Shown: in pieces, positions 2,975 through 36,641 of the stretch
Numbering within the stretch: position 1 is the stretch's first letter
How the letters are laid out: every line of letters starts with the position of its first letter
DNA from: a virus
Lineage: Duplodnaviria > Caudoviricetes
IMG/VR virus record: IMGVR_UViG_3300008116_000184
Location: 1 to 41,548 of that record
Strand: one strand, 5' to 3'
DNA length: 41,548 bases
Translations under genes and position numbers: made by a program
The notes under the pieces: generated by a model
What the model was told of the DNA's origin: nothing
Databases searched by the model: none
What the model saw: only the letters and a program-made list of their open reading frames with translations

Positions 2975-3213
2975 CTCTGTAATAAAACACTGCCAAACTC
3001 GGAAGTCTGCCGAATTGTTTAACATGCATTTACATATAGAATTAACGATCTGCCTAATATAGCATGCAAAAGCATATAAGATGGTTAGAATTTGTAACCG
3101 ACTGGAAAAAAATTTTTAGGGGGAAATTTTTTGAGAGTGAGACCCTAAGTATTCAAAGACCCCGGCTAAGTTCTGTGCTTCGAAATACCTCGGACACATA
3201 AAAATTTACCAAA

Positions 3214-3766: not shown

Positions 3767-3930
3767 CATGTGAACCAAAGGGTTTAACTGTACCCATAAT
3801 AAACAGTTAATTTATATTCTTAAAGTATTAGCATTTGAACAAGAGATGAGAAATTATACAAATGCACACAACCAACAGCATTGAGATCTGATTTGTCGAT
3901 ACAAGTCTTTCGATTGATATGTTGTTGGTT

Positions 3931-4024
3931 TGCTAATGCACCATAACTTACTTCCCAAGGGTGGGCAGTTGTATGTCAGTTTACTGTAGCAGAATACAGT
4001 CTTACAACTGAGTGCAGAGGGGCA
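3931..4024 (+). ncRNA. Twister-type self-cleaving ribozyme, copy 1 (type P1, extended P5)
   Basis: P1 UGC/GCA; UAA cleavage loop (U3934^A3935); P2 UGCAC/GUGCA; P4 CUUAC/GUGGG; loop UUCCCAAGG; P5 CAGUUGUA/UACAACUG; GA then GGG pairing with loop CCC. Confidence 0.75.
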
Positions 4025-4025
4025 C

Positions 4026-4126
4026 AGCAGTTGTAGTATATGCCGAGTTAGATAGATTTAGTAATCTATACTATACGTAGGGTGGCCACCTAGAATCAAC
4101 GTTCAGCAGGTAATACTACAATTGTT
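4026..4126 (+). ncRNA. Structured RNA domain between tandem ribozymes
   Basis: 14-bp closing helix AGCAGUUGUAGUAU/AUACUACAAUUGUU with internal hairpins (AUAGAUU-UAGU-AAUCUAU; ACGU/ACGU). Confidence 0.5.
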
Positions 4127-4274
4127 TGTATTAATGCATCATTCCAACTTCACAAGGGTTGGCAGTTGTAAAAAATCATCTACTATACAGTACACAAGTA
4201 ATAGTTGACCAGGCTTAAAGCTGGCACTGTATAACACAACCTGTAGAGGGTACAACTGAATGCAGAGTGGTACA
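4127..4274 (+). ncRNA. Twister-type self-cleaving ribozyme, copy 2
   Basis: P1 UGUAU/GUACA; U4132^A4133; P2 UGCAU/AUGCA; P4 CCAAC/GUUGG; loop UUCACAAGG; P5 CAGUUGUA/UACAACUG with an 80-nt nested insert; loop CAC pairs with GUG after GA. Confidence 0.8.
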
Positions 4275-4305
4275 TAATCAAATCATTAACTAACATTTAT
4301 TAACT

Positions 4306-4860
4306 ATGAATCTAGAACAATTTTTACAGAAGTACCCTAATGTGAGTGTAACCGATTTTATGCAAGCAGCATTTAATATCGTTAATGCAATCGAAGAAGC
4401 TCGTGAAGAAATTGCTGAAATAAATAGCAGAGATGAGCAAGCACTCGAACGGTTGCGTCGTAAGATGGATGATAATTCTGACGAAGAATATCAACAATCT
4501 TTTGATGCAATTAATTGGCCATCAGATGACCATGAGTATGAATCATTTAATGACTATGAATCATTTAATAGTGATGCTGATGAACAATATGTTACAGCAT
4601 CTACATCATACAATGCAAATGAAACATTCTACTTCATGAGTGATGAATATGGAGTACATGGAGGTCATGAACTAGGATGCTCAATGGCTGAACGTTGGGG
4701 TAATGTACTTTGGAATGTTCCTAGTAGAATAGACAGAAACATTGAGGATGAATTTCCCAATCACGATGTCAAACTATCTAGAAGCTATCGTATAGAACCA
4801 GACAAAGAACACCCTTGGGCAGTAGAAAAAAGAGTCTATAGGGTAACAAAGAGACAATAG
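4306..4860 (+). CDS. Acidic hypothetical early protein
   Basis: 184-aa ORF 31 nt after ribozyme 2; contains an 18-nt-period duplication (YESFND-YESFNS, 4537-4569). Confidence 0.8.
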   Translation: MNLEQFLQKYPNVSVTDFMQAAFNIVNAIEEAREEIAEINSRDEQALERLRRKMDDNSDEEYQQSFDAINWPSDDHEYESFNDYESFNSDADEQYVTASTSYNANETFYFMSDEYGVHGGHELGCSMAERWGNVLWNVPSRIDRNIEDEFPNHDVKLSRSYRIEPDKEHPWAVEKRVYRVTKRQ

Positions 4861-4936
4861 AAAGGACGTGATATTCGTCGTATTCCTAGGCATGAAGACA
4901 AACTGCCTTATACTTTACTAAATCTAAATAAACAGT

Positions 4937-5314
4937 ATGAAAACATTTACTTATCTAAAACGGGTTGAAATAGAAACAACTATTGAAGTTCCCGTAATCA
5001 CCTTTGTTGCTGAAAAGGTGCGTGTATCAACAGGTGACTCATCATGGTTTGAAATGGGTTATGTACCAAGATTTAACGGACTCACATCATGTGAATACGG
5101 TAAAGAAATGTGTAACTATAATGCCATGTGGAAGATGCTTGAAAAATATGTAGCAGAAACATTTAGTAAAACTAAAGGTTACGGTGCAGGTTATGGTTCA
5201 ATAGACTATCATGTCTATGCAGGTAAGGACATAGATATGCCCGAACTACCTAAGATTCCAAGAGAATGGAATGATGACCATGCTGACCTTGTTGCAATGT
5301 TCAAAGGTCTATAA
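4937..5314 (+). CDS. Hypothetical protein
   Basis: 125-aa ORF with A-rich leader. Confidence 0.8.
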   Translation: MKTFTYLKRVEIETTIEVPVITFVAEKVRVSTGDSSWFEMGYVPRFNGLTSCEYGKEMCNYNAMWKMLEKYVAETFSKTKGYGAGYGSIDYHVYAGKDIDMPELPKIPREWNDDHADLVAMFKGL

Positions 5315-5333
5315 GAGCACAAATTAATTATAT

Positions 5334-5369
5334 GGAAGCATCACAGGGTTTATAACTCTGTGATCTTCC
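5334..5369 (+). other. Long intergenic hairpin
   Basis: GGAAG(C)ATCACAGGGT-TTATA-ACTCTGTGATCTTCC, followed by a TAAATTTG promoter-like element. Confidence 0.5.
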
Positions 5370-5407
5370 GACTAAATTTGGATTTACATAAATCAACATA
5401 TAAAATC

Positions 5408-5986
5408 ATGAGTTACAACACTCCAAATTCTGGATCATTGACTGGGTTGTCAATGAATCAGACCTTGCTCGTGTCTGCTAGGAAAGTTGCAGGCCAAAAA
5501 TTACAGTTAGAATTTGCTGAGATCTTGGAAAAAGGATCTGCTCCAGTAAATGTTCTAGCGATGTTCAACCAATCAGACAATCGTTTCTCTCAAGGAGGAG
5601 CTCGTCGTGCTTGGATGACAGTAGAAGCAATTGATGCATCAAAACTATTAGGTGTTGATCTATCAGACTCTGCTTCTTGGGGTGTTGATTCATTAGGTCG
5701 TGAGATCTTAATGCTTAACATTCTAAACCCTCAAGTATTAATTGGTGACGAACTAATTAACTTGAAGGTTGAGGTAGTGGAAACTACTGAAGGTACAGAA
5801 TGGCAAAAGTCTAACTTAGAGACTTCTGCTAAGCGTAAAGGTAAAGACGGTGATTTTATCATGCACAATGGTAAGCACATCTTTGCTAACACACGTATTG
5901 CTCTTAACAAAGCTAACCACGTGTTCTTAACTGCTGATGCTAGTGTGGCTAACACTGTATCTGCATCTGATAGTGTTTTCAACTAA
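5408..5986 (+). CDS. Hypothetical protein
   Basis: Likely true start ATG 5408 (MSYNTPNSG...); the track's 5360 start lies inside a hairpin. Codon choice resembles highly expressed genes (many T-ending codons). Confidence 0.85.
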   Translation: MSYNTPNSGSLTGLSMNQTLLVSARKVAGQKLQLEFAEILEKGSAPVNVLAMFNQSDNRFSQGGARRAWMTVEAIDASKLLGVDLSDSASWGVDSLGREILMLNILNPQVLIGDELINLKVEVVETTEGTEWQKSNLETSAKRKGKDGDFIMHNGKHIFANTRIALNKANHVFLTADASVANTVSASDSVFN

Positions 5987-6005
5987 ACATTATCAAAAAA
6001 CCTAC

Positions 6006-6041
6006 AATAGGGTGTCAAGGTTAATTCCTTGACATTCTATT
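6006..6041 (+). terminator. Long hairpin (terminator-like) abutting ribozyme 3
   Basis: AATAGGGTGTCAAGG-TTAATT-CCTTGACATTCTATT (15 bp with G-U pairs), then TGTATT. Confidence 0.5.
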
Positions 6042-6113
6042 TGTATTAATGCACCACAACTTGATTCCAAAGGTCAAGCAAGATTTTAATCTTGAGTGCA
6101 GATGGGTACAAAT
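6039..6113 (+). ncRNA. Twister-type self-cleaving ribozyme, copy 3 (compact)
   Basis: P1 AUUUGUAU/GUACAAAU; U6047^A6048; P2 UGCAC/GUGCA; P4 CUUGA/UCAAG; loop UUCCAAAGG; P5 CAAGAU/AUCUUG; loop CCA pairs with UGG after GA. Confidence 0.82.
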
Positions 6114-6138
6114 AATTATTTACCAAACCTTAATTGTT

Positions 6139-6432
6139 ATGATCAATTTATCAAAAAACTCAACACCAAACTATTGTTTACCAAACTATTCAGTAGAAAA
6201 ACAACCTGTTAAAAAACCAATTATACGTAAACAATTTAAACAATTGTTTCGTGGATTAGCAGAATTAGCTGCTGTATTCACAGCTGTATTTATGGCTCCA
6301 GCATTACTTGCTGCGTTTGTTAACTTCGACATTAGTGTGTACTTCTCGTGCATACATAGTGCTACTTATTGTGTATTACTTACCATGCTTGGTATCATTG
6401 TGTCCATCTTTTATACATCGATGCACCAATGA
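6139..6432 (+). CDS. Membrane protein (2 TM)
   Basis: Likely start ATG 6139 (MINLSKNST...); the track's start at 6049 falls inside ribozyme 3. Confidence 0.75.
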   Translation: MINLSKNSTPNYCLPNYSVEKQPVKKPIIRKQFKQLFRGLAELAAVFTAVFMAPALLAAFVNFDISVYFSCIHSATYCVLLTMLGIIVSIFYTSMHQ

Positions 6433-28937: not shown

Positions 28938-31900
28938 TTATATTGAGCAAGACATATTTCCAGACTCAATTGGTAATTTTCCTCTGTCTAACAAGTATGT
29001 GCTGTTTCTCTCTATGTTGTTTTTAATCTGTGGAATTACTTCTTCGTTTGCTATTCTCATGTAGTTTAGCCCGTAAAGTTTAGTAGACCCCTTGGTTGTG
29101 AAAGTTCCTGTAAGCATTCCATACTGTGTCATAATAGATCCATCTCCAGCTGTTACTGGTCCAATTTTACCAAACACAGCACTTGTACCAACTTTTTGAT
29201 TTCTAACTATTATAAAGTTTTCAGTACCACTATCTAAAACAGTTTCTGTTGTTGACTTAAGTATATCACTGTTTACCCTTCTAACCAAGTTGCTCCCTCC
29301 AGCTCTCATTTTTCCAAATGCAGCCATGTAATTAACCATGTCTTGTGAATCAAAGTACTGGGACTGTCTAGCTTTAAATGATTCTTGTCTGAAGAAATCT
29401 AAGATGCTTATTCTGTTTTGAACTTCTATTCCAGGTTCTGATGGCCCTTGCTCAACCTTCACAGGAGTTGTGAAAAACTCTAAAGGAACAATATCAGCAT
29501 ATGAGCTAGCACTTTGTCTAAATCCATTTACAAAGAAGCTGTGCATTGCTAACTTTTCGGCAAAATCTTTTACTTCTTTTATACCTTCATTAACTTTTGG
29601 ATCAGTGTAGTTACCTTCACTATCCATTGTTTTATCTCCTGGTACATAGAATTGTGGGTTATACAATAGGTTGTATAATCCATCTGTATAAGATTGCTTT
29701 TCCCCTGCAGAAGTTTTAAATGTATTGTCAAACTTAATTCCATAGTACTTAGCTTCTGTATCTGTATCAGGCTCTAAGTTGGCTATAAATGGGTTTGTAT
29801 TTAATGCAGGGTACTTCGTCTTTAATCCTTGAAGTCTTGTATAGATGTTATCATTTGCTTTGTTGTACAAGCTTGACATGTTGTTCATAAGGGAAGCAAA
29901 TGGAGAACCAGGCTTCATAAGCATCATGAACATCAAGTTGTAATCAATCAACTGATGCATTTCAGGGGTTAACTCTTCAGTACTTACATTTCCTAATAGT
30001 TCTTTCTTGAAGACTTTGAATGATTCAGATAGTCTAGTAGGGAAGAACACACCTGCAAACTCAAGACCGTTTCTCAATAGATTCTCGTAACCTCTTTCCA
30101 TTCCATAGATAGATTTCTCTCCAATGAATTGGTCAGTAACGTTATCCATAGAAGTTGGTTCGAAGAATATTGGAGTCTTGAGAGAATCTTCACTCTGATC
30201 GAATGCATCAGCTCTATCTAAGTAAGACTGAATAGAACCTATTCGTCCCAATCCATCCATTGAATCTGGGGTTACTCTCTTTCCTAGTTTCATAAGAGCT
30301 GACCCAGCTTCGTAGAACTTCATAAAGTTAGCAAGCATCTTAAGTTGCTCATCTACATTTCTGTTCTCTTTGCTTAAGTTTTCTAACTCTGCAACATCCA
30401 TGTTGAATGTACCAGGCTTATTTAAATTTAAATAACCATTAGGGTCTTTGAGCTTTTTTCTAAAGGTCTTATAAGCTTGTTTTAAATCTCGTAAGTTTCC
30501 TGCTTTTGCAGTCTCAAAGTAATCTGTAAATTCTTTAATCAATGGTTGATTTAAGAACAAAGAACAGAATCTTGAAGAATACTCTGGGAAGAATCCTGAG
30601 AATAAAACTCTGATACGAGATGTTAAAACTGTATCGTTAAGTTCGTATTGTACAGGAAGTTTTGCAGCATCCACGGCAGCTGATAAAAATAGAGACATAC
30701 TTTTATCTGTTGGGTAAGATCTGCTTGTTTCATCAAATGGATTTTCAAAAGCAGTTTTTATGTAGTCTCTATATTCTACTCCGTTGATTTTAATAGCATA
30801 ATCGTTGTGCATTCTAACACTGCCGTGTTGTAACACGTTACGTGCAGCTAATGCATTTGCATAGATACCACGGAGTTTATTTCCAAGAGTACTACGACGA
30901 GCTGTAACAGCTTCTGTCTTGTAGTCACTCCAGTCTAATTCTTTTGCAAGTTCTGGGGACTTAGATTTAATCTCGTCCACAACAGTATTTAATGTAGTAT
31001 CATCAAGTGGAGTAAACACTTCTTTGAAGTGAGCAGGATTTGAGTACACTGCCTCCATCAAATCTAATATCACATTGTTAATCTGTTGATTAGACAACTT
31101 CGATAAGTTCTTTGACTTAAGTACACTTGCATAGTCTACAGATACTTTCTCTAGTTGCTTAGTCTCTTTATTAATTCTAACCTCTGGGAATAAGAGATTT
31201 AATTTATCGACGTCAAAGTCAGATCCCATCAACTTAACAAGTTGTCCTGGTACAACCACTGCTTTTGCATAATTATTTGGTAAGATTTTAGCAATCTTAA
31301 GCATAACTACAGAAGCTTTATCCTGATTAGGGATACGGTAACCTACAATTCTTCTAAGTTCTTCTGGGATAGAGTCTAAAGATTGTCCTGGCTGTATTCC
31401 AAACTTACGAGCTACGTCCTCACGGATCATAACTTCTGCATGGATTACCCTCTTACCATCTTCAGATATTTGCAAGAACTTCAAAGCACCACTTCCATCA
31501 GCTTCTGATCCTCCTAACTGTGTAACTTGAACTGCTTCAAACCCTTTAACTTTTTGTTTGAACACATCATTGTTTATTACAGACATTATGATGGACTCAT
31601 ACTTCTTGTTGTATAGAGGTATGTCAAGTGGAGCCACGAATCTAGGAGATCCATCGTTTTCAAATACGATATCTAAAGCTCTCTCATAGTTAGAGTGAAG
31701 CTCTTTTGTTCTAGCCTGCTTGAGTACTTTCTCTCTTACAGTTTTTAATACTACTAGTTTTGCTTCATTTATCTTGTTGATATCATTGCTTTCAGCAGCT
31801 GCATAAAGTTTAGTCAATCCAAACTCGTCTTCAACTTTCTTTGTATCTCTAGCAAGTTTCTCTTCTACAGCAGCATGGTAAAGGTCTTTTAATTCTTTAC

Positions 31901-34900
31901 CTGAAATTTCTGTATCTAGAATTCCAGGAGAGATTTGATATATGGTATCATCCTCAACATTGGCCACCATATTTTTTTTAATCTGACGATTGAGAGCATT
32001 TGTTGGATCTTCTTTTGCAGAAGGGATAAATTGTGGAAATCTTAATCCTGATGAAGAGTGAGTGTTAACCCCTGCTTCTCCAAGCAGTCCTAGTCTACCT
32101 GTATGTTTGTAAACGTTTCTCTTAGATAGTTTTTTACCAGATACAAAGTTTACTACATGTACTGGCTTTAATCCTTGATACTCTTCTACAGCTTCCATTC
32201 TACGACGTAAGTCTTCTAAGAATGGGAAGTTTGTAGTATATGATTTTAATAATACAGAGTAAGAGTTCTTTTGAGAGTCTATAGATAATGTTCTTCCAAC
32301 ATTGTTGTAAGACATTTTTTCGTAGTAACCTTTATGCCCCAATGTTGGGACTGGGTCTCCAACTTTTTTACCGTCAGGAACAAATCCTGGTTGGTATACA
32401 AACTCTCCTGTTACTTTATATGCTTTGTATGCTTCTTCATCTTCTCTCTCCCACTTTCCTAAACCTTGCATAATACTTCTATGCATATCCAAACTAATGA
32501 AAGCTTGAGCATCTGTAGAATCATATTTGCCTGGTCTAAATGCATCTGCAATAATTTTTGCTTCTGTGCTTGAGACACCACTTTTAACTAACCCATTATA
32601 GATATTTGTAGCCTGATCATTTGCTTCTTTTTCTTGTTCAGCATTTAGATTTAACTTAATATCTCTCATCACAATCTCATTGAACTCCTTCATCATTCCA
32701 TAAGATTCACTGATATCTCCAACCATAACCATTTTGGTTCCAGGAGTAGTCAAGTGGCCCATACGTTTGTAGAAGTCTTCTTGATTTTTATGTAGAGCTC
32801 TATTTCCACGGAATAGTTTTACTATTTCGTTTCTCATAATAGCATTTTCTACTACAAATCCTTTTAGCAATCCTTTTAAATCTACTCCGATAGCTCCACT
32901 CATTCCAATCTCTCCTACCTTCCCTGCTTTAGTCAACTCTGTTTCTAGAGCTAAAGCTTGTGCAGAAAAGAATTCAAGCATCTCATTAGTCATTCTATCT
33001 AAACGAGCATCAAATAGTTTCTGAGATTCTGCATCCATAGACTTGCCTACATAGTCCATAACCTTGTCACTCATCTGAGTAACTCCGTTCATTCTTGTAC
33101 CAGTTACATTCTCTGTTAAAGCTTCATCTGTTACTATGTATTTACCATCTTGGTTCTTAGCTCTGAATTGGAAGAAAGATTCTTTGAATGCATTACCAAG
33201 GTATTCTCCATTCTCTACAATTCTTGTAGGGTCTCCAGGAGCTGTGTGGTAACCTTCTTCTAAATCTGCATAATCTACTCTTCCATTTAAAGCTCCTCTT
33301 ACAACATCCTTAGCTTGTTTTACTCTCACTAAGTCTTGCACGATCTGAGCTTTAATCAAATCTTTATGTGACATGAATTGCTTAGAGAAAGCATTTTTGC
33401 TAATTCTAGGAACCTTTACAAATGTGAATTTGTCACGGTCTGATTGAACAGGGACAGCAATGTATGTATACTCACTATCTGTTCTGTTGTTAATGAAAGC
33501 ATTTATAAGAGTAACCATTGTATCGGCCTCTGAGAAGTCTTCATATGCAAGAGCTTCTTCATACTCTGATCCCATCTTGCTTGCATCAAAGTCAAATACC
33601 CCAAACTCTTCTAAGAATTTATTATCCATTAAATGTTTAAACAAGACACTTGTAAACTCAGGTCTTCCTTTTACATTGATGAATTCGTCTTTAAGATATT
33701 CTTTTAGTAACTGAGCAGAATTTTCAGATCTCTCTTTCAATATACTTACAATCTGAGCCATGTGTGTCTCAGTGTTTGTACCGTAGATTGCTTTTCCCTT
33801 TCCATTGACAAAGCTGATACCTGCAATAGGGATAGTTGATTTGAAAAGCTTTGCAAAATCTATAGCTGCAGATTTACGAGCAGTTATGAAATCTAAGTTT
33901 CTGTCATTCTTTACCCCTACAAACTCTTCAAGTTCTGATCCTTTCCCTCTAGTGAAATCTCCTACTTGACGGATGAATGATAGTACTTGGGTTTTAATAG
34001 TTCTCAAAGAATCTACCCCAGTCTTACCATCTATTCCATTATCAGCAATTGATTGTAATATTTTTTGTGTGTCTCCTACATTGGTATTGCTACCTACATA
34101 TAGACCTAATTCAAACATAGCCTGTGCAAGATGTTCTACAACAGGATTAACCTGTCCGTCTATACTAGCTACATTAACTACTCCAAATTTTGGGAGAAGT
34201 TTCTCAGCTTCTTTCCAAGCTTTTGCAGCTGCAATTACCTTATTCTTGTTAGTAGTAAGAACTTCTACAACCGTCCCATCCTCTTTAGTAACAACATCCT
34301 TTTTGTACAAAGCCATTCCATCTACTTCAGAAACAAGTGTATTCTTCCACTTCTCTGCAATAGCTGTTGGAATGTCTTTACGATTAGGATTGAAGACTTC
34401 AACGTAGTTTACTTTGTTATCTACCTTTTGCTTTAACATTACAAAGTCAGTATTGCTAAGTGCAAATGCAGAGAATATCATAGCCTTTTCAGAGTCTGAT
34501 AATTCGTTTAAAAAGTTAAGGACATTTCTTAAGTGAGGTCGTAGCTTTACTTCTTGCTTAAGAGCATTAACCATTGCAGTGTAAGTTTGCTTACCACTGA
34601 ATATGTTCAGCAATTCTTTGAATACAACATCTCTGTTTAAATATGTTTTAACCCCTAAGCTATTATATTCATTTGACATAATAGTAGATAGAAGTTCTCT
34701 TACTCTTGCTGTAAGTCTTTTTGCAGGACTAATCTCCATACTACTTTGTCCGTATATTTTCCCTACTGCTTCATCGATGATTGCAAATTCATCATTCAAT
34801 TCATCTAATTCATCCTCAGCCTCTGAAGGAGTTTCTAGGTCAGTATCGTATTTAAACTTAGAGTCAATGTATATTCCAGCATCTGTAAGTCTGTTTACCA

Positions 34901-36641
34901 ATGCTGTTCTCCAACCTTCTTGAATAATATTTCCAGATTTAGACTGTACTACATCTCCCCAAGTGGTGTATATGTTTTTGTAAACTGTTCTTTTACGTAG
35001 ATTGTCCCCCATTGCAAAAACTAAATTGTTTTTAGCAAGTATATCTCTAAGAGCTTGTAGATTTTCTGGAGATTTATTTTCTGTATAGACTTCTTCAGCA
35101 GCTATAGTTTCAATCATTGCAGCATAGTCTGTTGTCATATTTAGACTAGACCCGTCTGCTTTAGCATATATTTTTGTTAAAAATGAGTTTGCTATTGCTC
35201 CTTTATTTTCTCCAGATCCTAAAGCAACTGATGAGTCAAAAGTATCTTTATAGTCTTTTCTCATCTTTAAGAAATCCGTATATAAAACATCGACAGCATC
35301 TGTAATAGTTTGACCCCCCATTCCAGGACGGGTCAAATAAGCTGTCTTTGGTCCTACAAACTTTTGTGGGTTTCTCATTACTCCTCTACCAAGAATAGAA
35401 GTGTTCATTCTATTGCTTTCAATCAAAGAGTAAACCTGCTTTAGTCCTACACTGTCTGTGAACATTGCTTTGATGAAGTTCCAAAGATCTTTAAAGAACT
35501 TAGCAATTTTACCAGGAAGAGATTTTTCAGTAGCTTGATCAGTAAGAACGTAGTCTCTAAATTCTTCTGACATCTTCTCTTCTAGTACAAGCTTAAAAGC
35601 ATCTTCATTAGATATGTTTGGGAATTGCTTTTTAATATCAGCTATCTCAGCATCAGTAGGTGTCCCAAAATTCTTTTCAGCTTCTGCATACAATTGCTGT
35701 CTCTGTTCTTCACTAAGCATTGTTCTGAATACTAAGTGGTAAGCTTCGTGGTATTCTGTGCCTACTTCAGCAGCAGACCATAGGAACACAGAAGCATTCT
35801 CTACATATCCATGAATTTCTTGGCCTCCTACAGACTTAGCTGTTTCAAATATGCTAACAGAATTCTCTCCAAATCTTTCTGCTACCCAAGCTTTTGCCTT
35901 TTCAGCATTTATTGTTTGAGTAGATGATACTTGTGCACTAGTTCTAAATGCTTTATTGCTATTTACAAACTTTTGAAATCCTTTTATATCTTGTTTATTT
36001 CCTAATATATGAATTTGTTCTGGTTCAAACACTGTAATATTCTCTGCCCTTGTTATTGATGGTGATATTATGCCATCATAATTATTAGCTAATAAAGACT
36101 TTTTATAATTTCTGTAAGCTTCACTTTTTTCTATTAAACCTTGTACATCTTTAAATTTAGTAGATAGAATACCTGGTTCATTAACTATCTTTTTAATGTT
36201 TAATATTGCTGGATATTCTTGTTTCCATTCTAAATTTCTAGATTTAAGTAATTCTTTAAACTTTGTTTTATCTGTAGTAAAGAAAAACCCTAACCAGCTA
36301 TCAAAATCTCTTGTATTTGTGCTAATAAATTTCTTGTCAAATTTTTCAAATTGAGCATTACTTAGATGATATACAATATTTTTTACTTTACTATCAGGAA
36401 ATATAGAATCTAAATATTGAGAATATTGCTCCTCATTTCCAATAGCTTTTAACTCAGGACTAGATTGAAACAAGTCACTTACACCTGACTTAATTTGGAT
36501 TTGTTGAGGAACAGTTTGTACATAAAACATAGAAGGCACATTGCCTCTGTATTTATCCCAAAGGAAGTATGCTACATTTTCACCTTGTGCACTTACAAGG
36601 TTTTTCCATTCTTCAGAGTTTATGTTTGGACAAAATGCCAT
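28938..36641 (-). CDS. Virion-packaged DNA-dependent RNA polymerase (crAss-like, phi14:2 gp66-type)
   Basis: GYRIPNQ and GSDFDVDKL (31206-31220) catalytic motifs; DSTDAQ; N-terminal ART-like module and HEAYH zincin-like domain. Confidence 0.93.
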   Translation of the reverse strand: MAFCPNINSEEWKNLVSAQGENVAYFLWDKYRGNVPSMFYVQTVPQQIQIKSGVSDLFQSSPELKAIGNEEQYSQYLDSIFPDSKVKNIVYHLSNAQFEKFDKKFISTNTRDFDSWLGFFFTTDKTKFKELLKSRNLEWKQEYPAILNIKKIVNEPGILSTKFKDVQGLIEKSEAYRNYKKSLLANNYDGIISPSITRAENITVFEPEQIHILGNKQDIKGFQKFVNSNKAFRTSAQVSSTQTINAEKAKAWVAERFGENSVSIFETAKSVGGQEIHGYVENASVFLWSAAEVGTEYHEAYHLVFRTMLSEEQRQQLYAEAEKNFGTPTDAEIADIKKQFPNISNEDAFKLVLEEKMSEEFRDYVLTDQATEKSLPGKIAKFFKDLWNFIKAMFTDSVGLKQVYSLIESNRMNTSILGRGVMRNPQKFVGPKTAYLTRPGMGGQTITDAVDVLYTDFLKMRKDYKDTFDSSVALGSGENKGAIANSFLTKIYAKADGSSLNMTTDYAAMIETIAAEEVYTENKSPENLQALRDILAKNNLVFAMGDNLRKRTVYKNIYTTWGDVVQSKSGNIIQEGWRTALVNRLTDAGIYIDSKFKYDTDLETPSEAEDELDELNDEFAIIDEAVGKIYGQSSMEISPAKRLTARVRELLSTIMSNEYNSLGVKTYLNRDVVFKELLNIFSGKQTYTAMVNALKQEVKLRPHLRNVLNFLNELSDSEKAMIFSAFALSNTDFVMLKQKVDNKVNYVEVFNPNRKDIPTAIAEKWKNTLVSEVDGMALYKKDVVTKEDGTVVEVLTTNKNKVIAAAKAWKEAEKLLPKFGVVNVASIDGQVNPVVEHLAQAMFELGLYVGSNTNVGDTQKILQSIADNGIDGKTGVDSLRTIKTQVLSFIRQVGDFTRGKGSELEEFVGVKNDRNLDFITARKSAAIDFAKLFKSTIPIAGISFVNGKGKAIYGTNTETHMAQIVSILKERSENSAQLLKEYLKDEFINVKGRPEFTSVLFKHLMDNKFLEEFGVFDFDASKMGSEYEEALAYEDFSEADTMVTLINAFINNRTDSEYTYIAVPVQSDRDKFTFVKVPRISKNAFSKQFMSHKDLIKAQIVQDLVRVKQAKDVVRGALNGRVDYADLEEGYHTAPGDPTRIVENGEYLGNAFKESFFQFRAKNQDGKYIVTDEALTENVTGTRMNGVTQMSDKVMDYVGKSMDAESQKLFDARLDRMTNEMLEFFSAQALALETELTKAGKVGEIGMSGAIGVDLKGLLKGFVVENAIMRNEIVKLFRGNRALHKNQEDFYKRMGHLTTPGTKMVMVGDISESYGMMKEFNEIVMRDIKLNLNAEQEKEANDQATNIYNGLVKSGVSSTEAKIIADAFRPGKYDSTDAQAFISLDMHRSIMQGLGKWEREDEEAYKAYKVTGEFVYQPGFVPDGKKVGDPVPTLGHKGYYEKMSYNNVGRTLSIDSQKNSYSVLLKSYTTNFPFLEDLRRRMEAVEEYQGLKPVHVVNFVSGKKLSKRNVYKHTGRLGLLGEAGVNTHSSSGLRFPQFIPSAKEDPTNALNRQIKKNMVANVEDDTIYQISPGILDTEISGKELKDLYHAAVEEKLARDTKKVEDEFGLTKLYAAAESNDINKINEAKLVVLKTVREKVLKQARTKELHSNYERALDIVFENDGSPRFVAPLDIPLYNKKYESIIMSVINNDVFKQKVKGFEAVQVTQLGGSEADGSGALKFLQISEDGKRVIHAEVMIREDVARKFGIQPGQSLDSIPEELRRIVGYRIPNQDKASVVMLKIAKILPNNYAKAVVVPGQLVKLMGSDFDVDKLNLLFPEVRINKETKQLEKVSVDYASVLKSKNLSKLSNQQINNVILDLMEAVYSNPAHFKEVFTPLDDTTLNTVVDEIKSKSPELAKELDWSDYKTEAVTARRSTLGNKLRGIYANALAARNVLQHGSVRMHNDYAIKINGVEYRDYIKTAFENPFDETSRSYPTDKSMSLFLSAAVDAAKLPVQYELNDTVLTSRIRVLFSGFFPEYSSRFCSLFLNQPLIKEFTDYFETAKAGNLRDLKQAYKTFRKKLKDPNGYLNLNKPGTFNMDVAELENLSKENRNVDEQLKMLANFMKFYEAGSALMKLGKRVTPDSMDGLGRIGSIQSYLDRADAFDQSEDSLKTPIFFEPTSMDNVTDQFIGEKSIYGMERGYENLLRNGLEFAGVFFPTRLSESFKVFKKELLGNVSTEELTPEMHQLIDYNLMFMMLMKPGSPFASLMNNMSSLYNKANDNIYTRLQGLKTKYPALNTNPFIANLEPDTDTEAKYYGIKFDNTFKTSAGEKQSYTDGLYNLLYNPQFYVPGDKTMDSEGNYTDPKVNEGIKEVKDFAEKLAMHSFFVNGFRQSASSYADIVPLEFFTTPVKVEQGPSEPGIEVQNRISILDFFRQESFKARQSQYFDSQDMVNYMAAFGKMRAGGSNLVRRVNSDILKSTTETVLDSGTENFIIVRNQKVGTSAVFGKIGPVTAGDGSIMTQYGMLTGTFTTKGSTKLYGLNYMRIANEEVIPQIKNNIERNSTYLLDRGKLPIESGNMSCSI

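Follow-up and report, generated by a model that had tools for sequence, protein, structure and literature searches.

Three short intergenic elements in a 41,548-nucleotide (nt) phage DNA (IMG/VR record IMGVR_UViG_3300008116_000184) probably represent a phage RNA family that has the layout of a type-P1 twister ribozyme and a rewired T2 pseudoknot, and that likely cuts itself at a U/A step and splits a rightward transcript. This stretch, hereafter the window, is a whole linear virus record whose completeness is rated at 51%. A first-pass annotation had placed three twister-like elements at these positions, and a pattern for their 5′ half matched three times, always on the plus strand (cores starting at 3934, 4132, and 6047), against 0.01 matches expected from 100 shuffles. 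A covariance model built from the family recovered the same three elements and no fourth copy in the window, the next match having E = 0.31. The annotated T1 triplets (CCC:GGG, CAC:GUG, and CCA:UGG), the three P4 stems, and the fifth P2 pair (C-G, U-A, and C-G in copies 1–3) were all found as described. The P1 stems, said to be all different, proved only partly so: copy 1 differs, with 3 base pairs (bp), and copies 2 and 3 share five inner P1 pairs.

Using the position numbering of the rice twister (PMC5113685), we compared the elements with the known class. P1, P2, and P4 in type-P1 order, T1, UAA, and GA are all present, as the first-pass annotation held. Each copy carries UAA after P1, with A+1 and A+2 in place, and a G and an A after the 3′ strand of P2 (G4017, G4265, and G6101). 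T1 forms between L4 and the bases after GA and covaries at all three pairs, and the L4 bases U24, A28, A29, and G30 occur in all three copies. The two-pair T2 (G13–C31 and C14–G30) is reduced, with only C14–G30 possible; because position 13 pairs into the fifth P2 pair, T2 keeps at most one pair. By their predicted fold, the elements are a twister-class variant, which we set outside RF03160 because they lack both the two-pair T2 and a match to the covariance model. The circular permutations twister P3 and P5 were rejected: every copy opens at P1 and contains a full P5 and a T1 that matches within the copy, and joining copy 1 to copy 2 over the spacer would leave T1 mismatched.

Scanning viral and metagenome contigs with patterns expanded the variant into a family with no fewer than 240 complete, distinct bodies in the fetched loci, equivalent to about 50 effective sequences at 85% identity. 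Of these bodies, 51 have a short P5 and 189, copies 1 and 2 among them, a long one. Nearly all members lie on viral contigs. The first relaxed scan gave mostly chance matches, with 28 of 116 distinct parses structurally sound. Two scans led to estimates of about 310 and about 370 stored viral stretches with the variant; the corresponding estimate for canonical twisters, from one narrow pattern, is about 1100. The family model gave one to four matches in each of the 26 viral records searched (26/26). In prokaryote genomes the short form had no match; the P5-anchored form matched 18 loci (a full P4 in 11 of them), all on metagenome-assembled contigs that span mixed taxa and are probably co-binned phage.

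Stems P1, P2 (5 bp), P4, P5, and T1 covary across this family. Among 47 short copies, T1 was paired in 100%, with two-sided changes at all three pairs, as was P2 in 100%, P4 in 99%, P5 in 97%, and the inner P1 pairs in 83–85%, while the 13–40 pair was C-G in 27 and U-A in 20. Their covariation score was reached by 0 of 500 shuffles, and slid controls attained at most one fifth of it. As these copies had been filtered for pairing, unfiltered matches were counted too: all three T1 pairs formed in 100/103 and P4 in 101/103, and positions 13 and 40 were Watson–Crick in 100/103, U-G in 2, and mismatched in 1, where about 14 C-A combinations would be expected if they were independent. In the filtered set, parsimony on a core tree placed about 26 changes at both positions. 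A separate scan left positions 13, 14, 23, 30, and 31 free and returned 118 matches, 115 of them with P4. Among those 115, position 13 was C in 96 and U in 19, and C14, U23, and G31 were each found in 115 and G30 in 114; U24, A28, and A29 were fixed in every pattern. The U23–G31 pair showed no covariation, with one C-G at 23–31 among 240 sequences. The P5 arms are long, folded, and variable, without an enriched shared word in their interiors (the top 6-mer occurs in 12/108), and no conserved cargo was found in the long ones.

The bases at the catalytic positions are conserved without having been searched for. A signature scan anchored on the junction, the P4 loop, and the start of P5, with the cut site and GA left free, gave 117 distinct matches, 98 of them with P4. 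A7 and A8 were each present in 97/98, and base −1 was U in 93, A in 3, and C in 2. For the 94 matches with a 3′ half, GA occurred in 89 and the bulged A in all 94. Natural twisters tolerate any base at −1, and a change of A+1 kills activity (PMC11662667). Of the indirect evidence, this free conservation speaks most strongly for selection on cleavage. In our judgement the family probably works like a twister and cleaves.

Genomic placement and relatives were examined as well. We scored ATG-led open reading frames (ORFs) of at least 25 codons beginning 15–45 nt after T1 against four later windows. Such ORFs followed 29/52 short-P5 copies versus 7–10/52 in the later windows; canonical phage twisters are alike, with 77/111 versus 23–35/111. 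The annotated placement ahead of start codons was thereby upheld, as were the distances of 31 and 25 nt between the ends of copies 2 and 3 and the ATGs at 4306 and 6139 (36 and 33 nt past the respective T1 strands), and the presence of three ORFs in the piece between these copies. In the closest complete relative (G028; 82.3 kb, polymerase 87% identical), variants lie before the homologue of ORF 4306 and about 70 nt after that of ORF 5408, the places of copies 2 and 3. The first of these is a mosaic, with the 5′ flank and P4 type of copy 1 and the pseudoknot and 3′ flank of copy 2; because G028 carries this single mosaic copy, copies 1 and 2 with their spacer were either duplicated or collapsed by recombination. 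A second relative (G027) lacks any variant match and has a canonical twister between the ORFs homologous to 4937 and 5408, and a third (G029) has one canonical and one variant element 1 kb apart. In all three, a twister of one kind or the other lies no more than about 600 nt from the ORF 5408 homologue. That relatives hold canonical twisters in the same operon supports the twister-like reading.

In the mechanism we favor, self-cleavage between U and A at 3934/3935, 4132/4133, and 6047/6048 would split a long rightward transcript into pieces. The Rfam twister-P1 consensus has a G-C pair closing an 8-nt loop that ends in AAGC. The simplest mapping onto the variant, which we infer, would turn the closing G-C into U-G, delete C31, and replace G13 with a pyrimidine that pairs with position 40. 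G13–C31 would then be gone, P2 would grow from four to five pairs through 13–40, C14–G30 would form a one-pair T2, and the invariant U-G would close P4. Because 13–40 replaces G13–C31 and C14–G30 stays, the P2 and T2 stack would keep six pairs, as 5 + 1 instead of 4 + 2, and the new invariant bases A15, bulged A39, U23, and G31 may brace it. The chemistry would be that of twister: G45 would act as the general base and A7 as the general acid, and the upstream product would end in a 2′,3′-cyclic phosphate, the downstream one begin with a 5′-OH. Each downstream piece would keep the folded ribozyme as its 5′ leader, about 20–40 nt before an A-rich start site. A phage that reads this block with its own virion RNA polymerase could in this way define the ends and the stability of its mRNAs, and free small structured RNAs, with no protein nuclease.

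Several observations weigh against this interpretation. Saturation mutagenesis of the rice twister found no tolerated substitution at G13, G30, A46, or G48, and A40C, a mutant proposed to extend P2 at the expense of T2, has an activity of 0.09 (PMC5113685). In the supplement of that study, double mutants with G13C reach at most 0.07, except with U12G (0.56), and those with G13U at most 0.14 among approximately the first 120 values per row. Position 40 of canonical phage twisters is A in 113/115, which is not pairable with G13. C14–G30 has no covariation support because the pair never varies (114/115). A few copies (L571, L572, L639, and L614) lack G45 or UAA and keep the rest of the fold. Folded in isolation, copies 1 and 2 do not exceed shuffles in stability (z = −0.9 and −0.6), and the minimum-energy fold of copy 1 departs from the model; for copy 3, the family structure is the minimum-energy fold (z = −4.2). 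Long-P5 copies are barely enriched ahead of ATG ORFs (34/111 versus 21–28/109); placement as a leader holds for the short copies, is weak for the long ones, and is usual among phage twisters. In favor of activity, a large test of natural twisters found that one imperfect T2 pair lowers cleavage without abolishing it, the mean cleaved fraction falling from 0.76 to 0.53; T2 was two nucleotides long in all ribozymes of that test (PMC11662667). Because the rice mutants are inactive, neither a swapped T2 nor a P2 extension works in the canonical scaffold; since G13 substitution and P2 lengthening kill the rice twister, activity of the variant would need compensation, presumably by its other changes.

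One alternative is a slow or gated twister, in which the 13–40 pair is the off state and a trigger (protein, ribosome, or P5 arm) would induce the 13–31 pair and a 2-bp T2. Both pairings are possible in every copy, since position 13 is without exception C or U and position 31 without exception G. The P2 extension is also the proposed off-switch of rice A40C (PMC5113685), and the character of the P5 arms described above suits gating. However, the rice double mutant G13C/C31G is not restored, with a relative activity of about 0.06 as counted in the supplement matrix (PMC5113685). G31 never follows position 13, as U13 occurs with G31 in 19/19 and with A31 in 0/19, the P5 arms share no common word, and no trigger is known. 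We regard gating as unlikely. An equally doubtful account is that the elements are dead, twister-derived scaffolds whose fold is kept as a protein-binding site, a nuclease barrier, or the border of a recombination cassette. The loss of G13 and C31 and the few decayed copies would fit, as would the observation that copies flank variable gene sets and seem to recombine, given the G028 mosaic and inter-copy spacings from 141 to 2177 nt. A7, A8, G45, and A46 are kept while −1 drifts, however, as expected under selection on cleavage chemistry, and canonical twisters occupy the same operon in relatives.

Improbable, in our estimate, is the fold of the first-pass annotation, which has a 4-bp P2, a polarity-swapped 2-bp T2 (Y13–G31 and C14–G30), and an extra loop U. 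It keeps the canonical topology, C13–G31 or U13–G31 is formable in 115/115, and wobbles are tolerated in T2 (PMC11662667). Nevertheless, it uses position 13 twice, in the fifth P2 pair and as half of the new pseudoknot described as (C/U)C with AAGG, and it leaves the strict 13–40 covariation unexplained; the swap is, moreover, inactive in the rice twister (PMC5113685). The extra U did not hold up either: alignment to the Rfam consensus suggests that the loop, counted from the P4-closing pair, is one base shorter than the canonical one. Finally, it is very improbable that a 198-nt RNA is cut out by copies 1 and 2 and ligated into a circle at ends that its spacer hairpin brings together, since, although the spacer closes a helix between the 3′ P1 strand of copy 1 and the 5′ P1 strand of copy 2 (as does a similar spacer in L402), only 2/22 neighboring pairs have an end-closed spacer (two more partly), G028 lacks the unit, and none of the five phage records searched has an RtcB gene (5/5), even if a host enzyme could act. 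Circle formation was also dropped as a general feature on the pair and RtcB counts.

Large, unnamed catalogues of viral structured RNAs exist. That Rfam models miss the variant, as the first-pass annotation anticipated, was borne out: Rfam gave no ribozyme family for the three copies, either over the whole window or at E ≤ 10 on 3800–6300, and twister-P1 matched 0/40 variant loci, with 18/20 canonical phage loci found at E ≤ 6e−4 as a control. The Rfam search of G000 gave no twister matches. Twister-sister, pistol, hatchet, hammerhead, and HDV-like ribozymes had no Rfam or core-motif match in the window; the same Rfam search did detect pistol and hammerhead in other loci. We found no description of the variant in the literature covered, and the 2014 discovery alignments, the supplement of PMC11662667, and viral RNA catalogues, which lay outside that coverage, might hold members. 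A published search for further twister permutations found none (PMC10085705).

With RF03160 (twister type P1; rice Osa-1-4 and env22) the variant shares UAA after P1, the U/A cut, P2, C14, P5, P4 with a U-NNN-AAG loop, the 3-bp T1 to bases after GA, and conserved G45 and A46; like canonical twisters, it occupies phage intergenic sites 15–45 nt before start codons. Unlike RF03160, it has no G13, no C31, a 5-bp P2, at most one T2 pair, and no P3; U-G rather than G-C closes its 5-bp P4; A15 and the bulged A39 are invariant; and P5, optional in RF03160, is always present, stacked directly on P4 and often 40–195 nt long. The T-variant twisters of Schistosoma mansoni are likewise natural variants at the 5′ end of coding RNA, where cleavage allowed downstream translation in a reporter, but their changes lie in P1 and the number of L1 As, their context is a eukaryotic retrotransposon, and in those listed GC is retained, as is a canonical loop with AAGC at its end (PMC8501958). 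Theta ribozymes of gut phages (PMC10879173) are also small self-cleaving phage RNAs adjoining non-coding RNA genes; they are HDV-like and tied to transfer RNA (tRNA) genes, whereas the present variant is twister-like and the window has no tRNA. A theta identity was rejected given the twister-type core, this absence, and the few tRNA calls near other copies, and a general tRNA link was dropped as well. In phage-gene ribozyme clusters (hammerhead, twister, pistol, hatchet, and twister-sister; PMC10085705, PMC6765202), classes are similarly interchangeable in position, but the known clusters lie in Mu-like prophage genes, and here we find a lytic-type crAss-like replication block and a second motif without a family. 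Processing of polycistronic transcripts, phages included, has been suggested for such ribozymes and is unproven (PMC6765202); the idea that ribozymes process phage mRNA was published before and is not new here.

That second motif, M3, lies in the segment bounded by copies 2 and 3, with the ATG of ORF 4937 28 nt downstream (Table 1). It occurs in 45 viral loci (L772–L816) with 26 distinct cores, across which 98.5% of cells are paired and 7/13 pairs change on both sides. All four hairpin pairs have changed on both sides, and a single covarying pair supports the inner stem of the pseudoknot. No Rfam family matched M3 in the window (3800–6300) or in 20 loci. An ATG follows 10–40 nt later in 13/26, versus 3–7 in later windows; M3 adjoins a variant twister in 6/39 flank-distinct cases, and in one locus it begins 2 nt after a tRNA 3′ end. 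Among M3-bearing records, 14/28 have a match to the twister-variant model, of which weak ones may be canonical twisters. M3 may be a ribozyme, an element that controls translation, or a barrier to nucleases. It sits at ribozyme-like sites, after a stop codon and about 25–40 nt before an ATG, and the front transcript might be processed by two uncatalogued cutters, the one-pair-T2 twister (possibly gated between 13–40 and 13–31) and M3 as a new ribozyme class, an idea to which we give little credence.

Other structured RNAs adjoin the family. Long copies often lie within RNA-rich islands, and the five inter-copy spacers measured, out of eight, all fold better than shuffles (5/5; z = −1.9 to −9.3). 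Those of L012, L001, and L018 (407–474 nt; z = −3.9 to −9.3) have no Rfam match and contain short ORFs; they are possible large unknown RNAs. A GOLLD RNA (L006:1097–1491, plus strand; 101 bits, sub-gathering) lies between two copies and ends 10 nt before a predicted cut. Relaxed ARAGORN searches found permuted transfer-messenger RNA (tmRNA)-like genes directly after or before copies at L021:978–1496 (minus), L191:683–1075 (plus), and L015:1163–1452 (plus), those in L021 and L191 coming after. In L450, a pistol ribozyme (2162–2222, minus; 56 bits) precedes two same-strand variant copies by about 490 nt. A third small stem-loop, with a 16-nt loop of shared sequence, stands 14 nt after short-P5 copies in L006, L020, L034, and L209. 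Within the window, the hairpin directly 5′ of copy 1 has homologues in L602 and L473 (near-identical L445), the spacer hairpin at 4027–4122 is likely a relic of a decayed or duplicated copy, and a plain strong hairpin (5334–5369, plus strand) occupies, between ORFs 4937 and 5408, the place of the canonical twister of G027.

By protein similarity the window belongs to a crAss-like phage. The best matches of its primase are crAss-like phages (about 33%), and DNA polymerase A, two helicases, a Sak4-like protein, primase, and rIIA/rIIB follow 3′ of the elements on the same strand. The virion RNA polymerase homologue has an N-terminal ADP-ribosyltransferase-like domain (residues 89–211; Pfam ART-PolyVal, E = 2.5e−8). 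In crAss-like phages, the virion RNA polymerase transcribes the regulatory and replication block (PMC10136315), so that the label "early" for the window transcript is an analogy with phi14:2 and crAss001. A scan for sigma-70 promoters and terminators gave no excess over shuffles (15 versus 17.8 and 3 versus 2.1, respectively). The non-coding stretch 3100–3195, which has A and T runs, opens the rightward gene block and is conserved in divergent relatives (L188, L418, L473, and L521); it is a candidate promoter, origin, or genome-end signal. The ORFs between copies 2 and 3 matched no PHROGs or Pfam family, and an assignment of ORF 5408 as MOSC (ESM Atlas, 0.91, 146 shared features) was dropped as a match in the chance range. 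A cultured-phage collection held no DNA match for 3920–4290 and none for ORF 5408, and we found no cultured host–phage pair carrying the variant. Two public RNA runs contained 5–8% of the words, as contigs only, in short pieces from relatives that are uninformative on ends, strand, level, or habitat.

Table 1. Coordinates of the elements and of neighboring features in the window
Feature	Position	Strand	Description
Hairpin	3871..3930	+	long, P0-like; directly 5′ of copy 1; predicted fold
Copy 1	3931..4024	+	predicted cut 3934/3935; family model 62 bits
Copy 1, P1	3931-3933/4022-4024	+	
Copy 1, P2	3937-3941/4012-4016	+	
Copy 1, P4	3947-3951/3961-3965	+	
Copy 1, C14	3942	+	
Copy 1, loop	3952-3960	+	
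Copy 1, P5	3966-4010	+	45 nt
Copy 1, bulged A	4011	+	
Copy 1, G45	4017	+	
Copy 1, T1 3′ strand	4019-4021	+	
Spacer hairpin	4027..4122	+	outer stem resembles family P5 arm; predicted fold
Copy 2	4127..4274	+	predicted cut 4132/4133; U13-A40 form; T1 CAC:GUG; P5 96 nt
Copy 2, G45	4265	+	
ORF 4306	4306..4860	+	184 aa (amino acids), acidic, no family; distant homologues in G027, G028
M3 RNA	4860..4908	+	4-bp hairpin, conserved 7-nt loop, then predicted H-type pseudoknot
ORF 4937	4937..5314	+	125 aa, no family; G027 homologue 58% identical, canonical twister after it
ORF 5408	5408..5986	+	192 aa, no family; homologues 54–61% identical in G027, G028, G029
Hairpin	6007..6040	+	just 5′ of copy 3; predicted fold
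Copy 3	6039..6113	+	predicted cut 6047/6048; 8-bp P1; T1 CCA:UGG; short P5 (16 nt)
Copy 3, G45	6101	+	
ORF 6139	6139..6432	+	97 aa from second ATG; likely membrane protein
Virion RNA polymerase homologue	28938-36641	-	2567 aa; matches phi14:2 virion RNA polymerase

What is known here is the twister class; what is new, as far as sequence comparison reaches, is an uncatalogued, widespread variant with a rebuilt T2 joint. A two-pair T2 with G13 has been regarded as essential in twisters, and a family of hundreds would show another solution to the same active site, reached by lengthening P2, the same change that kills the rice ribozyme. If this is true, phage ribozymes are undercounted by searches that rely on models. 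Since canonical and variant forms replace each other within one operon among related phages, the family also adds cases that bear on what self-cleaving ribozymes do in phages.

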